A DNA stretch of 39,203 bases. Source: a virus. A program made the translations under genes and the position numbers. Shown piece by piece: positions 24,407 to 28,038 of the stretch. The stretch lies in IMG/VR virus record IMGVR_UViG_3300045988_111327, positions 1-39,203 of that record; one strand, 5' to 3'. Position 1 is the stretch's first letter. Every line of letters begins with the position of its first letter. Under the pieces are notes generated by a model. The model searched no databases. It was not told the origin of the DNA and was given only the letters and a program-made list of their open reading frames with translations.

Positions 24407-25252
24407 TTACTTTTTAAAACTGCTTGGCAAAATCTTAGGACAACAAGCGTTCCAGTTGACTAAGTGATGAATACGCAAGTGCTTGTCGCCCATTGCCGTT
24501 AGTGATACTATGGCTGGTTCTTGAATCACTGAATACATCGACTTTAGATACGTACCGTGATCGGTATACAGCTCCGTCATGCCATTTTCTGTTTTCTGTG
24601 TCTTAGGTTGGTTGATCATCAGAAACGAGTTTGTCAGCATGATTCGCCCGAGCTTGCCATAGTGTGTGTACATGTTGGTGTCTTCGTTGATACGTCCCAT
24701 AAATCTAACCGGCGTATCTGTCTTCCAAAAATAAACGTTCATGGCTTTACGCCTAAACTGGTCTTTAACCATACCGCCACTAGCACCACCTATGAAGTCC
24801 CCCCCTTGTGCCCAACAAAAACAATCTGTCGGCGTGGTTCTGAGCAACTCCAGTGATGTGTCAAATAATGGTGATATATTTTTGAATCTAATTTGTTTTA
24901 GTTTTCCATTCTTTACGTACCGTGCCGAAAACGTGTTGTAGTCGTCGTCAAGCATGACGAAATATTTCGCCCCCATGCTCTTAGCTAGATCAAAACAATA
25001 GTTCCTTGCCGATACAACTCCACTCTTTTCCGGAATGTTGTCCATTAGGTCTTCTTGTACGTCGTAGCGGTTGAACGTTTTCAGTATCTTGCCATATCTC
25101 GCTTGATACTCTCCAAACTGTGGGTCGTCATCACTAACGACCAGATAAATGTTTTCATCGACTCCCAATTTATGCAGCGTTTCCAGTGTCTTCTGTTCTT
25201 TGGCTCGCCCATAAGTCAGGATAAAAATTGGTGTGCTACTCAAGACGCTCAT
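24407..25252 (-). CDS. Hypothetical protein with GT-A-like glycosyltransferase features
   Basis: N-terminal beta strand PIFILTYGR, and a hydrophobic strand followed by a DXD-like motif (YFVMLDDDY). No family identified with certainty. Confidence 0.45.
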   Translation of the reverse strand: MSVLSSTPIFILTYGRAKEQKTLETLHKLGVDENIYLVVSDDDPQFGEYQARYGKILKTFNRYDVQEDLMDNIPEKSGVVSARNYCFDLAKSMGAKYFVMLDDDYNTFSARYVKNGKLKQIRFKNISPLFDTSLELLRTTPTDCFCWAQGGDFIGGASGGMVKDQFRRKAMNVYFWKTDTPVRFMGRINEDTNMYTHYGKLGRIMLTNSFLMINQPKTQKTENGMTELYTDHGTYLKSMYSVIQEPAIVSLTAMGDKHLRIHHLVNWNACCPKILPSSFKK

Positions 25253-25991
25253 CTACGTCGCCTACCTCGTCAATCTCTGCTGAGCGAACCTCATCTTTAA
25301 ATTTCGCAATGCCACGTGCAATTGCATCTTCGTAGTCGATAATCACTAGCAACTGCTCTTCGAATGCCTTTTGTATCGTTGCATCACTATGAGCGTAGAA
25401 CTCGGCAATTTTTGCAAAATCAAACTTAATAAACCGTGTCGCTCCTAGTAACAGGAAATGCTTTATACCCTTATCAATATCGAGTGAATCGATATACTCT
25501 TTTAATTCGTTGTATTTTTCGGTATCTGCCAGCTCATCAACATCAGGCTTTTTGTCACTGTTAGGAACGTACTCCACCGCATCAGTTTTCTGTGAGTACT
25601 TGTCATCGAACTTAGGAGTGTCTTTCTCACCATCAAAACCGAAAGCAGTCATATCGATGTTGGGAACGGTGCTAAGCTCATCTTTAAGCAAGTCGTCAAG
25701 CCAACTGGTCAGCTCGTTGGTCTTGTTGTCTGCCAGCCGGTATGCTCTGACCTGCTCATCGCTCAGCTTGTCAGCAACCACTACTGGAACATCTTTTAAG
25801 CCTAGCTTTTTCGCAGCCTTGTATCTGGTATGCCCAACGATAATAACGTTATCCTTATCAACTACGATTGGTTGCTGGAAACCAAACTCTTTAATCGAGC
25901 TGGCAACGGCATCTACACCGTCATCGTTGTTTCGTGGGTTCTTTGGATATGGTTTTACATCACCAATCGGCACTTCTTGAATCTGCTCCAT
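25236..25991 (-). CDS. ParB N-terminal domain (ParB/Srx-fold) protein with a C-terminal domain of unknown type
   Basis: VKPYPKNPRNNDDGVDAVASSIKEFGFQQPIVV...IIVGHTRYKAAKKLG is the classic ParB-N pattern. No methyltransferase motifs in the C-terminal half. Confidence 0.8.
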   Translation of the reverse strand: MEQIQEVPIGDVKPYPKNPRNNDDGVDAVASSIKEFGFQQPIVVDKDNVIIVGHTRYKAAKKLGLKDVPVVVADKLSDEQVRAYRLADNKTNELTSWLDDLLKDELSTVPNIDMTAFGFDGEKDTPKFDDKYSQKTDAVEYVPNSDKKPDVDELADTEKYNELKEYIDSLDIDKGIKHFLLLGATRFIKFDFAKIAEFYAHSDATIQKAFEEQLLVIIDYEDAIARGIAKFKDEVRSAEIDEVGDVDERLE

Positions 25992-26000
25992 GATTGCACC

Positions 26001-26180
26001 TCACAACTCCATTTTCGGCGGTTTAATGCTATACCTAACCTTTTTATCAATCTTTGTCTTAACAGGCTCGTGTCGCTCATTCTCGGCCTTGTGTCGCTCT
26101 CTGCATATCTGGTCAGCATAAGCCAACATGATATACTCAGACCGGCTACTGACTAGCCCGTATTTCTTTGTGATAAACAT
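26001..26180 (-). CDS. Small hypothetical protein (59 aa)
   Basis: Start chosen at MFITKKYG, which has RBS AGGAGAG, just downstream of the terminator at 26210-26235. Confidence 0.5.
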   Translation of the reverse strand: MFITKKYGLVSSRSEYIMLAYADQICRERHKAENERHEPVKTKIDKKVRYSIKPPKMEL

Positions 26181-26209
26181 TCGTTCGCTCTCCTGACCAA
26201 ATAAAAAGA

Positions 26210-26235
26210 CGGGCCGAAACCCGTCAATTGAAACT
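26210..26235 (-). terminator. Rho-independent terminator downstream of the tRNA
   Basis: Minus strand: GACGGG-tttcgg-CCCGTC followed by TTTTTATTT. Confidence 0.75.
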
Positions 26236-26355
26236 GATGCGTAAGCAGCACGCCAACGACCACTGTCAACGTACATGCTAACTATATTAACTCAATGAAA
26301 AGTGAATTTTTTATTTTTCCCTCATGAGAAACAATAGTTTTTTGCCCGTAGGCAA

Positions 26356-26427
26356 CGTATCCCGCAGGAATCGAACCCACATCTTCCGCTATACATGGCG
26401 GCTGCTCGCCCATTGAGCTAAGGATAC
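26356..26427 (-). tRNA. tRNA gene with a non-canonical anticodon arm (4-5 bp stem, 8-nt loop CAUGUAUA); identity undetermined, GUA is the best 3-nt reading
   Basis: Minus strand: GTATCCT TA GCTC AATGGGC GAGC A G-CCGC-CATGTATA-GCGG-A AGAT GTGGG TTCGATT CCTGC GGGATAC G. Acceptor, D and T arms are canonical. No encoded CCA. Confidence 0.75.
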
Positions 26428-26925
26428 ACAACCCGCCGGCGTTGATAAGGAACACCAGTGCCGGAAGGATAATATATGCAAAGGATTATGCAACCCGTTT
26501 TAAATTATGCCATTTCTGGCAAAGGATAGGTAGTGGACTCGCACCACTTTTTGCATGCTGCTAACGCCGGTGGATCGTTCAAATAGCGTTAACAACAAGC
26601 CCGCCTGGGACCTTCCAACTACTCGTCGTGTCTTTCGAGTAGTTAACACCGTAAGGCGGAATCGTACCGCCTCGCAAATGATCATATATTGGAGCGATTA
26701 GGTTTAAGGTTTACGGAAGTAATCATTTGCCATCTTATACGGTATGACAAGCGGTTTCCCGCTCGTTAGGTAAAAAGTCGCTTCGCAATTCGCGAATATT
26801 TTTTCTTGCGCATGCAAGCCTAGAAAATCAAAGTATGACTAAATTAAATCGTTTTGAAAGGATTCCATTTCCAACAAATTTGAAAGACCATCGGAACAGA
26901 AAGGTTCTATGCCATCTCTGGCACA
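26428..26925 (-). ncRNA. Candidate large structured ncRNA (ROOL/GOLLD-like class) directly upstream of the tRNA
   Basis: Largest ORF-free gap in the genome. It holds a GNRA hairpin (26750-26763), T-loop-like hairpins (26654-26672, 26532-26548), a 9-bp hairpin (26617-26644) and long-range complementarities. The 5' boundary is uncertain. Confidence 0.5.
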
Positions 26926-26930
26926 ATACC

Positions 26931-26959
26931 AATATACCGCATTTTCAAGGTTTGTTTAA
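26931..26959 (-). promoter_or_regulatory. Possible promoter for the ncRNA-tRNA unit
   Basis: Minus strand: -35 TTAAAC (rc of 26954-26959), 17 nt, -10 TATATT (rc of 26931-26936). Confidence 0.3.
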
Positions 26960-27003
26960 TCCCCTCTTAGTACCCCAATTGGTACTACCTTATATACCAC
27001 TTT

Positions 27004-27495
27004 TTAAGCCGTTGCTTTCTTCAAGATTGTAAACGTAGGAAACAACTCTTCAACTTGGTACTTTGCAATCGCTGTTTCGATTGTTTCTGAAAACTCATAG
27101 CATGCAAACTTTTCTGACTTGTGCCAGCTCTTGTTGCTACTGATATGCAGCAGCTCTTTGACGTCTTCGACTTGTTCTCGCTTGACAAACCGGTTTTTCA
27201 GAATAACCCGGCTTTCTTCGCTCAAACAATTGTTGATTGCGTCATACACTGCATTTAACGCCCTTGAATACTCCGTGTGAGCGATAAAAGCGTCTTCGTT
27301 GTGATTTCCACCACTACCACCGAAACCGCCGTCAGCAGACAATGACGGGCTTTTAATATCACCTGACCCCGCCTTGCGTAGAATATGGCTAAACGTCCGC
27401 TTGTTAAATCCATCGTCAAAGAAGAAATCACGCACCGCTTGGCGGGTTGCCTGCTCGTCAATTTCATCGAATAATTCTGCTTGTTTAACTGCCAT
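27004..27495 (-). CDS. ArpU-family late transcriptional regulator
   Basis: 163 aa. N-terminal pattern ATRQAVRDFF, a Gly-rich linker and C-terminal helices. Last gene before the packaging region, as is typical. Confidence 0.7.
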   Translation of the reverse strand: MAVKQAELFDEIDEQATRQAVRDFFFDDGFNKRTFSHILRKAGSGDIKSPSLSADGGFGGSGGNHNEDAFIAHTEYSRALNAVYDAINNCLSEESRVILKNRFVKREQVEDVKELLHISSNKSWHKSEKFACYEFSETIETAIAKYQVEELFPTFTILKKATA

Positions 27496-27498
27496 GCC

Positions 27499-28038
27499 CT
27501 AACCCCTTTCGACTTCATAGCGACCCAGATATGGCTTTTCTTGCCGGCGTTTCAAATAGTTGTGTAGCGCATGAGCTTTAAAGCCTAACGCCCGTTCTGC
27601 TGCTTGAATGCTGATATAGTGCATGACTTTACCTAGCTTTAAATCTTTAATGGTGATTTCCACGCCAGGCCTTTTAAATGACGGCAACTTTTGATGCATA
27701 ACCTTTAACGCACCGTTTCTTCGTACGTGGTAAAGGTAGCTGCTTCGAGAAATTGGCACGTTCTCGATAACCCAATGCCAGTTTTCGCCATGCTCTAGCG
27801 CTTCCTTTTGTTTTGCGTAAATTTCAGCCTCAATGGCAAAGTTGTCAACACTTTGTCCTGGCTTGTGATAGTTTGCTCGCATTTCCTTGATCATCTCTTG
27901 CAGCTTCTTGTACTTTGCCGTTGCCGTTTCGCCGTCTGGGCAACCGCCATCGTCCAGAAAGTCATATTCCAGATATAAATCGGGGTACGTTGTTCGATAC
28001 CAGTTCTCCAACTGGCAAAACTCTTGCATATCAATCAT
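27499..28038 (-). CDS. Hypothetical protein with a C-terminal NUMOD/IENR-like HTH
   Basis: ISIQAAERALGFKAHALHNYLK resembles DNA-binding modules of homing endonucleases. No nuclease motif seen. Confidence 0.55.
   Translation of the reverse strand: MIDMQEFCQLENWYRTTYPDLYLEYDFLDDGGCPDGETATAKYKKLQEMIKEMRANYHKPGQSVDNFAIEAEIYAKQKEALEHGENWHWVIENVPISRSSYLYHVRRNGALKVMHQKLPSFKRPGVEITIKDLKLGKVMHYISIQAAERALGFKAHALHNYLKRRQEKPYLGRYEVERG

Follow-up and report, generated by a model that had tools for sequence, protein, structure and literature searches.

What is encoded in 576 nt of phage DNA that separate an activator gene from a tRNA and hold no conserved gene of their own? The gap lies at positions 26428-27003 of the window, by which we mean the whole 39,203-nt stretch of IMG/VR virus record IMGVR_UViG_3300045988_111327, and a first-pass annotation made from the sequence alone had proposed that it is a large, pseudoknotted RNA of the ROOL/GOLLD class. 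The region encodes a minus-strand non-coding RNA of about 500 nt, belonging to temperate Limosilactobacillus mucosae phages. The RNA is a chain of modules, in the order 5′ domain, tRNA-like domain TLS1, hairpin H3, tRNA-like domain TLS2, three spacer hairpins, tRNA slot, trailer and intrinsic terminator. Its architecture is one of exchangeable modules, including two tRNA-like three-way junctions, and not one ornate pseudoknotted fold. Coordinates are positions in the window, the RNA strand is the minus strand, and L-numbers (L004, L113 etc.) are labels of related loci.

The gap RNA and its tRNA-like domains

The gap was confirmed as non-coding. No conserved open reading frame (ORF) was found, and the sole sizeable ORF on the RNA strand, of 61 aa, was absent or frame-shifted in several of 18 homologues. 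The proposed minus-strand specificity of the structure was reflected in its minimum free energy (MFE), with z = -4.34 on the minus strand vs -1.86 on the plus strand. The minus-strand gap had an MFE of -181.8 kcal/mol, which none of 100 shuffled sequences equalled, and the 499-nt RNA counted from the predicted transcription start gave z = -4.38. Homologous intergenic regions were collected, as the first-pass annotation had suggested; their stems covary and no protein-coding frame is conserved among them. With this conservation, and with compensatory changes among relatives, the claim of a large non-coding RNA in a Lactobacillales prophage was upheld. The RNA probably does not extend across the whole gap as had been supposed, since about 80 nt at the 5′ end (27003-26927) are likely to be promoter and operator DNA.

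BLAST of the region against 50,697 GenBank phages returned zero matches, and megablast of half the window returned just two short unrelated ones. A search with the upstream protein led to 17 IMG/VR contigs carrying the same intergenic element, at 74-94% nucleotide identity and 96-99% protein identity. A two-part pattern based on the best-conserved piece retrieved 44 viral-contig stretches in three subfamilies: A, the type of the window; B, with another 5′ domain; and C, in which both the 5′ and the 3′ parts are different. A search of 185,579 species-representative genomes gave one true match, L. mucosae DSM 13345 (element on NZ_AZEQ01000005.1), in which the prophage flanks are about 87% identical to the window. 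The other four of the five genome-contig matches, in metagenome-assembled genomes of Planctomycetia, Verrucomicrobia, Chloroflexota and Rhodanobacteraceae, were rejected as chance, none of them being recovered by the covariance model built from TLS2 (model R1). A 39,346-bp circular ‘plasmid’ of L. mucosae A1 (NZ_CP058957.1) also carries the element, unannotated and at 91.5% identity. Gut-type assemblies yielded another 46 stretches in a metagenome scan, each confirmed by a covariance model at 77-101 bits. About 80 distinct relatives were gathered in all, from L. mucosae prophages, the 39-kb circular element and gut metagenomes. Relaxed patterns (a degenerate T-loop; the S1-S2 spacer) gave chance matches only, a T-arm-only pattern gave the same contig set again and one truncated copy, and a search with the 15-mer GTGGTGCGAGTCCAC gave mostly chance or tRNA matches. 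The family as defined by TLS2 is confined to phages of the L. mucosae type.

Covariation was counted in TLS2. Its acceptor-like stem of 7 bp (GGAAGGU/ACCUaUCC) is followed by a 9-nt linker, CCCAGGCGG (CCCAGGYGG), a long variable arm (26600-26553), the sequence AAAAA and a T arm with a 5-bp stem, AGUGG-UGCGAGU-CCACU (26548-26532), directly after which comes the acceptor 3′ strand. The three subfamilies supplied 23 distinct sequences for an alignment in which pairing holds in 98.4% of cells and both sides change in 11 of the 25 pairs; when the partners were slid by 1-3 columns as a control, pairing fell to 36-48%. The single-stranded motifs are identical in all 23 sequences, and the flanks are unalignable. 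Folded as an isolated segment, TLS2 has the same three-way junction as its MFE structure. Model R1 scored 77-101 bits on all 78 full-length copies and 51 bits on one 5′-truncated copy, and outside the family it matched only true tRNAs, end to end and weakly (19-22 bits).

TLS1 is built in a similar manner. An acceptor-like stem, AUACCGUA/UACGGUGU (26745-26738 with 26653-26646), leads into a 7-nt linker and a long arm of 11 bp (26730-26720 with 26684-26674) with a 35-nt loop, and the T arm AGGCGG-UACGAUU-CCGCCU (26672-26654) stacks on the acceptor 3′ strand. The isolated segment has this junction as its MFE structure (z = -3.07), and its pairs hold at 99-100% in 25 sequences, including a G-C to A-U change in the T stem. 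TLS1 is homologous in subfamilies A and C, UACCGUA/UACGGUG corresponding to (C/U)ACCGCA/UGCGGUA with a U-A to C-G switch, and its T stem occurs as GGCGG/CCGCC, GACGG/CCGUC and GGUGG/CCACC.

In both domains the acceptor 3′ strand comes directly after a T stem of 5-6 bp, as in the top half of a tRNA, and the T-loop has 7 nt with U at position 1 and A at position 5. Neither has a D arm, its place being taken by an unpaired linker of 7-9 nt, nor a 7-nt anticodon loop. The third arm has 11-15 bp with a loop of 18-35 nt here, and its lengths differ between subfamilies. TLS1 and TLS2 thus copy only the top half of a tRNA, with a 7-8-bp acceptor-like stem stacked on the T arm and a G-rich linker for the D arm, and a variable arm stands in for the anticodon arm.

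The hairpins between and around these domains were likewise retained. In H3, five of the nine pairs change on both sides within subfamily A, and its counterparts in subfamilies B and C combine unrelated stems with ACACA or CACACA loops. Among the spacer hairpins, S1 (UGCCA-GAAA-UGGCA) has GAAA, GAGA, GCGA or GGGA loops in relatives, all of the GNRA type; S2 is UGCA-UAAUCCUU-UGCA, and S3 is CCGGC...GCCGG with UAUCAACG in its loop. The whole hand-built structure of subfamily A comprises 81 pairs, of which 99.2% are paired in 25 sequences (29-47% with slid partners), and seven pairs change on both sides. Many of its changes are from G-C to G-U, which would be A-C mismatches on the other strand.

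The hairpins listed by the first-pass annotation were all present on the minus strand: the GAAA-capped hairpin at 26763-26750, which can be extended to 26765-26748, both T-loop hairpins, which are the T arms of TLS1 and TLS2 (26672-26654 and 26548-26532), and the 9-bp hairpin at 26644-26617. Its three long-range complementarities also exist as sequence, and two of them lack support as pairs. In place of the suggested GGAAGG/CCUUCC pair, GGAAGG (26616-26611) pairs locally with ACCUaUCC (26531-26524), where covariation was seen. The pair CCGGCGUU/AACGCCGG is disrupted in L007, L006, L015 and L004, with no compensating change, and the other subfamilies lack it. These are the two complementarities that would cross, and with neither backed by relatives the pseudoknot is unsupported. 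For CCGUAA/UUACGG, UUACGG pairs better with AUACCGUA (26745-26738), so that CCGUAA is the less likely partner. Long-range pairs from the first 46 nt to the interior, suggested by RNAalifold, were rejected as well; they show no covariation and start upstream of the likely promoter.

The reiteration of AUCCUU that had been noticed was genuine, with four copies rather than three. The shorter motif UCCUU has five copies on the RNA strand, where 0.63 are expected; one of 1000 shuffles reaches five, and the opposite strand has none. Three of these lie in the spacer and a fourth just upstream, on the acceptor 3′ strand of TLS2. The UCCUU(U/C) motifs (minus-strand 26863, ~26526-26527, 26486, 26470 and 26451) resemble the 3′ end of 16S rRNA (CCUCCUUU), and the 5′ domains of subfamily C contain ACCUCCUUUC exactly. 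From their sequence, the UCCUU motifs could be internal pairing partners or putative Shine-Dalgarno-binding sites.

Membership in a known family was examined by covariance-model search with Rfam 15 (4227 families), run over the whole window at gathering score. The proposed ROOL/GOLLD membership was not supported, the tRNA being the only match, and none of the alternatives named in the first pass (HEARO, group I/II introns, tmRNA and RNase P RNA) was matched. At E <= 10 over 26150-27150, ROOL and GOLLD were still absent; beyond the tRNA, the only matches were an artefact antisense to the tRNA and, across the terminator, one to SorY at 20 bits. Sixteen related loci gave only tRNA at gathering score. 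For the subfamily-C RNA of L113 at E <= 5, the matches besides tRNA were all far below gathering score, including a 17-nt fragment that fits the T arm of the tmRNA model at 15.1 bits vs a gathering score of 47. No tmRNA was found in the window by ARAGORN, and RF00023 was unmatched there. Since Rfam 15 finds only tRNA, the gap RNA is not a ROOL, GOLLD, HEARO, intron, tmRNA or RNase P RNA, and it matches no Rfam 15 family. Literature searches found the RNA nowhere described, the 10,006 unnamed candidates of a large IMG/VR screen (PMC10690425) lying outside the comparison.

The tRNA slot, flanking signals and neighbouring genes

Table 1. Coordinates of the features in and around the gap RNA.
Feature	Position	Strand	Description and basis
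Upstream gene, phage transcriptional activator	27004-27495	minus	PHROG phrog_248, E = 4e-24; ‘ArpU-like’ in the first-pass annotation
Inverted repeat	26968-26988	minus	GTAGTACC-AATTGG-GGTACTA; just after the activator stop codon
Sigma-70-type promoter	26931-26958	minus	-35 T(A/C)AACA, 16-nt spacer, -10 TA(T/A)ATT; consensus scan
P1 hairpin	26908-26925	minus	UGUGCCA-GAGA-UGGCAUA, GNRA loop; predicted RNA 5′ end
5′ domain	26766-26907	minus	Subfamily-A-specific; one AUCCUUUC motif at 26863; structure without support
GNRA hairpin	26748-26765	minus	CGAGCGG-GAAA-CCGCUUG; just 5′ of TLS1
TLS1	26646-26745	minus	tRNA-like three-way junction; isolated-segment MFE, pairing, homology to subfamily C
H3 hairpin	26617-26644	minus	9 bp; ACAC-containing loop (AAAGACACGA)
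TLS2	26524-26616	minus	Conserved core, tRNA-like three-way junction; covariation, MFE, model R1
Spacer	26432-26522	minus	Three hairpins, S1-S3; 100% paired in 25 sequences, little variation
tRNA slot	26356-26427	minus	Cloverleaf on tRNA-Asn-type body; Rfam RF00005, 38.7 bits vs gathering 29
3′ trailer	26226-26355	minus	Hairpin UUGCC-UAC-GGGCAA (26355-26342), variable stretch, conserved 70-nt segment GUACGUUGACAGUGGUCGUUGGCGUGCUGCUUACGCAUCAG; 18-locus alignment
Intrinsic terminator	26199-26225	minus	GACGGGUUUCGGCCCGUC then UUUUUAUUU; terminator scan

As annotated, the gap runs directly into the tRNA at 26427-26356 (38.7 bits with Rfam), with a terminator behind it (26225-26208 in the terminator scan). 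The slot element covers positions 1-71 of the tRNA model, and Rfam flagged one of its anticodon-stem pairs as non-standard. Its MFE structure is a cloverleaf with an anticodon stem of 4 bp and an 8-nt loop, CAUGUAUA, and it lacks the 7-nt loop, readable 3-nt anticodon and 5-bp stem of a decoding tRNA. ARAGORN reported ‘tRNA-???’ with a 2-nt anticodon (gt), or a 4-nt one (tgta/UGUA) in mitochondrial mode. Judged by these features the slot element of the window is probably non-decoding. It is the only tRNA of the window; one or another version of its anticodon arm in relatives might still decode, for example a quadruplet codon.

Slot content varied widely among relatives. In 79 distinct variants it was tRNA-Ser(GCU) (28), no callable tRNA (25), tRNA-Asn(GUU) (11), an aberrant element (8), tRNA-Tyr(GUA) (5) or other (2). 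The Asn-type body occurs in relatives with at least seven versions of the anticodon arm, comprising the intact Asn loop, 8-nt loops, tetraloops, a duplication and short replacements, and its acceptor, D and T arms are constant. The S1-S2 spacer lies 3′ of TLS2 in subfamilies A and B and 3′ of a true tRNA-Ser in L106 and L111. Because this spacer follows either, TLS2 occupies the position of a tRNA in an array. TLS2 and the slot tRNA are also alike in having U(-1)/G(+1) at the 5′ junction, no encoded CCA, and U-rich trailers with UUGCC hairpins.

Subfamily C has a further domain, TLS0, with a covarying acceptor stem. Downstream of its tRNA-Ser, subfamily C carries an anticodon-arm-less tRNA and a D-armless mini tRNA. 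Both mini elements were found in the L. fermentum phage JNU_P5 (L192, MN830253.1, 3302-3751), in an unannotated 450-nt gap after the phrog_248 activator gene. The anticodon-arm-less element there scored 44.9 bits with the Rfam tRNA model, its anticodon arm being replaced by 3 nt. In the same gap ARAGORN called zero tRNAs, TLS1 and TLS2 were absent, and a search at E <= 1 gave, besides tRNA, only matches far below gathering score; the island closes with a terminator. The L. fermentum phage LFP01 (L139, OR048821.1, 36466-36808) has a 3′-truncated, unannotated copy of the anticodon-arm-less element. Since the stems of the mini elements covary across loci and the elements recur in JNU_P5 and LFP01, non-decoding tRNA-shaped modules are maintained in phages of two host species.

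Some further features of these islands were noted. Subfamily-C islands (L113, 9652-9669 and 10212-10233) have, besides the closing terminator, an internal hairpin that resembles a terminator and carries a U-run, directly behind TLS0, so that such an island may be more than one transcription unit. In JNU_P5 and LFP01, CCGGAAA direct repeats lie upstream of the island promoter, where the window has its inverted repeat, and these may be putative activator sites. A 27-kb contig (OOBU01000294.1) has two TLS2 copies of different types, L148 and L159, without BLAST-detectable mutual similarity; one belongs to subfamily A, and in the other the TLS2 arm is short, as in subfamily C. The two types could come from two phage regions or from a chimeric assembly.

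Upstream of the RNA, the inverted repeat is nearly invariant in 25 subfamily-A sequences, and subfamily B (L112 ~88-120) has a similar GTACC-AGAA-GGTAC upstream. It is possibly an operator or activator binding site, and it probably lies outside the RNA because it is upstream of the predicted promoter. A promoter had been suggested in the first pass, and the consensus scan recovered a promoter-like site at 26958-26931. Both of its hexamers are retained in the two sequence versions of that stretch, and the -35 context GGATTAAAC is common to the window and subfamily C. Transcription probably starts near 26924, as judged from the promoter position. In 25 sequences the seven pairs of P1 hold at 99.4%, and a single change, from C-G to U-G, was seen. 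The 5′ domain that follows is about 90% conserved and has almost no informative variation; the other subfamilies are unrelated in sequence here. In the GNRA hairpin, the version found in relatives, AAGCAAG-GAAA-CUUGCUU, differs at five of seven stem positions and keeps the pairing and the GAAA loop, as read from the alignment, and L016 has the equivalent CGGGC-UUGC-GCCCG. At the other end of the RNA, the 70-nt segment GUACGUUGACAGUGGUCGUUGGCGUGCUGCUUACGCAUCAG (within 26226-26341) is highly conserved in subfamily A, and the sequence just 5′ of it varies. This segment may belong to the RNA as a further module or may be a site in the DNA, cos for example. The terminator is kept in 16 of 17 subfamily-A loci (the exception being L014) and in L099.

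The product of the activator gene had no Pfam match at E <= 0.01. The phrog_248 match holds for the upstream gene in subfamilies A and C and in JNU_P5, and of the 79 loci with enough flank, 72 have an activator homologue upstream, on the same strand. Upstream of the activator gene, a 179-aa ORF (27499-28038, minus) had neither Pfam nor PHROG matches. On the 3′ side of the terminator, the order is a conserved 59-aa ORF, a ParB_N protein, a TET-associated glycosyltransferase, and the small and then the large terminase subunit. The 59-aa ORF (26001-26180, minus) has a GGAGAG ribosome-binding site and starts directly behind the terminator; it is kept in L148 with amino-acid substitutions and was unmatched in Pfam and PHROG. 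The TET-associated glycosyltransferase, a beta-glucosyl-HMC-alpha-glucosyltransferase in PHROG, lies with the ParB_N gene at 24407-25991 (minus). The L. mucosae A1 relative (L193, 3407-5239) has ParB_N, hypothetical proteins and a QueT-family transporter at that place, and the DSM 13345 prophage is without the ParB_N-glycosyltransferase segment. This stretch, from the RNA island to the small terminase gene, has the look of a variable slot for DNA modification. All islands that were examined close with an intrinsic terminator, which separates the activator-proximal promoter from the late genes.

Candidate functions of the RNA

As the best explanation overall, we lean towards a modular RNA of tRNA top halves, a late-leader transcript that is cut at its tRNA-like joints. 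Transcription would begin at the promoter just downstream of the late activator gene and yield a leader of the packaging and late operon. RNase P would cut 5′ of each acceptor-like stem and RNase Z would cut 3′; a CCA end is encoded by none of the modules. The products would be stable tRNA-sized RNAs and released spacer pieces. Selection would act on the tRNA top half, as read by RNase P, RNase Z and other elbow or acceptor binders, and not on decoding. That the leader is cut by just these two enzymes, with selection on the tRNA top half, is a tentative proposal from module shape and order, which we rate somewhat short of probable.

Several points weigh against this explanation. The Rfam tRNA model (RF00005) misses TLS1 and TLS2 over 26524-26745 even at E <= 10, and running ARAGORN in its mitochondrial mode or at lowered thresholds gave many doubtful calls and no clean recovery of either. 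Variation within subfamily A is low (90% column identity) and many stems are invariant, and the 5′ domain is structurally unsupported. The differences between subfamilies are partly whole-module swaps, so that independent compensatory events are few. The pairs were also counted on the very sequences from which the structure had been built, and this gives the structure an advantage over the slid controls. The start site, the processing and the stability of the RNA are all inferred from sequence. The invariant linker of TLS2 and its unusual UGCGAGU T-loop exceed the needs of mere cleavage signals, and the conserved loop motifs ACAC, UAUCAACG and UCCUU are not accounted for on this reading.

A cis-acting late-operon leader, in which the RNA or its processing would control read-through of the terminator (26225-26199), is in our view rather unlikely. 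Comparable arrangements are PR′-6S RNA-tR′ of phage lambda under Q and the put-type antitermination RNAs. The order of activator gene, promoter, RNA island, terminator and late genes recurs in the window, subfamily C, JNU_P5 and LFP01, and the first downstream gene has its own ribosome-binding site right behind the terminator, with no intervening same-strand promoter seen by the scan. The CCGGAAA repeats upstream of the JNU_P5 and LFP01 island promoters, which resemble activator sites, also fit such a leader. However, module content is very different among phages of the same layout, JNU_P5 having neither TLS1 nor TLS2, and a specific RNA polymerase-binding fold is hard to reconcile with these differences. 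Known antitermination RNAs are moreover small (~70 nt) and not tRNA-like, and this class of activators is described as activating promoters rather than as causing antitermination.

Action in trans was considered in two forms. It is unlikely that the modules (TLS0, TLS1, TLS2 and the anticodon-arm-less and D-armless elements) constitute a new class of top-half tRNA mimics that head the late operons of Limosilactobacillus phages and act in trans on a host reader of the acceptor, T arm or elbow. Such modules would, for example, block a tRNA-directed immune nuclease or redirect RNase P, RNase Z or CCA-adding activity, and if this were true, the hypervariable bottom halves and the module shuffling would be traces of an arms race. 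We regard as quite unlikely a trans-acting mimic that would titrate a host acceptor/T-arm or elbow binder, the candidate targets being toxins, tRNA-targeting defence nucleases and enzymes of modification or processing. Selection on several non-decoding tRNA-shaped modules would suit this mimic, as would the promoter and terminator of its own, which make the island moron-like; module shuffling and hypervariable anticodon arms recall arms-race loci. Among the proposals of PMC10264068 is that phage tRNAs counter tRNA-targeting defences, which also supports it. However, most known tRNA-targeting defence nucleases cut the anticodon loop (e.g. PMC13056530), and this usual target is the part that the modules lack.

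There is only a small chance that the RNA, though outside ROOL and GOLLD, is analogous to them in function, that is, a self-assembling multimeric particle with the linked tRNA as cargo or partner. The context is common to all three, as are a variable 5′ part and a conserved 3′ core, and the size is near the ROOL average of 581 nt (PMC5737381). Covariance-model similarity to either family is nevertheless absent, pseudoknots and long-range contacts are unsupported, and the host range is narrow; the swap or loss of modules argues against one integrated tertiary fold.

A decaying and functionless array of pseudogenised tRNAs and spacers would account for the damaged anticodon arm in the slot of the window and of many relatives, and for module shapes that are tRNA-derived. 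This rival, already disfavoured, is highly improbable: compensatory changes hold the stems paired (98-99%), the single-stranded motifs of TLS2 are identical in 23 sequences of three subfamilies despite unalignable flanks, and anticodon-less modules are common to phages of two host species. A DNA-level site (cos/pac or a protein-binding array) or a small protein, as might be suggested by the position upstream of the terminase genes, a frequent place for packaging sites, and by the presence of the 61-aa ORF, is barely credible, since strand-specific G-U pairs and one-sided transitions make sense at the RNA level only, that ORF is lost or shifted in homologues, and no packaging-type repeat array was seen.

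Comparison with known systems

The gap RNA is best filed with the phage tRNA-cluster-associated stable RNAs and with tRNA-like structures, and not as a member of ROOL or GOLLD. ROOL resembles it in being a structured RNA of about 580 nt in Lactobacillales and other prophages, often beside tRNAs (PMC5737381), and the same context was found here, with a prophage-type gene order and an RNA fused directly to the tRNA slot. Unlike ROOL, the present RNA consists of two three-way junctions and hairpins, in exchangeable modules and with no supported pseudoknot. ROOL forms a homo-oligomeric nanocage (PMC12286853). GOLLD shares with it the phage context, adjacent or embedded tRNAs, a variable 5′ part and a conserved 3′ part (PMC12286853). 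Unlike GOLLD, which typically exceeds 800 nt, the present RNA is much smaller, has no match to the GOLLD model and was found in L. mucosae phages only. The likeness to both families is one of context only (phage, tRNAs, size, a variable 5′ and a conserved 3′ part), and the pattern seen in common with GOLLD is one of layout, not evidence of homology.

A parallel in mode of action may be drawn with tRNA-like processing signals. The mascRNA of MALAT1, the t-elements of plant mitochondria and the tRNA-miRNA transcripts of murine gammaherpesvirus 68 are non-decoding tRNA shapes, joined to other RNA, at which RNase P and RNase Z set the ends of RNAs, and by analogy the present RNA most likely works in the same way. 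Unlike these eukaryotic, organellar and herpesviral examples, it is made of different modules in tandem in a phage late leader, and its cleavage is a prediction. The tRNA-like domains of tmRNA and of the YrlA Y-RNA have an acceptor and T arm, a substitute for the D-loop and a large insertion at the anticodon arm, which is the topology of TLS1 and TLS0. Bacterial Y-RNA families were unmatched in 26150-27150 (E <= 10) and in L113 (E <= 5). In contrast to tmRNA, the TLS domains are internal and have no 3′ CCA end, G3-U70 pair or tag reading frame. The stable RNAs of the phage T4 tRNA cluster known as ‘species 1 and 2’ are not tRNAs, and they are co-transcribed and co-processed with the phage tRNAs. 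The present RNA, compared with them by description only, differs in host, size and architecture.

Set against these systems, the locus bears on three matters. Not all phage “tRNA genes” are decoders, which touches the long-standing question of why phages carry tRNAs. In several Limosilactobacillus phages a terminator separates the activator-proximal promoter from the packaging genes, which hints at an unstudied step in the control of late genes, and culturable carriers exist in L. mucosae DSM 13345, L. mucosae A1 and the L. fermentum phage JNU_P5. Finally, Rfam lacks this large phage RNA, which has comparative backing and occupies the niche of ROOL and GOLLD with a very different build.

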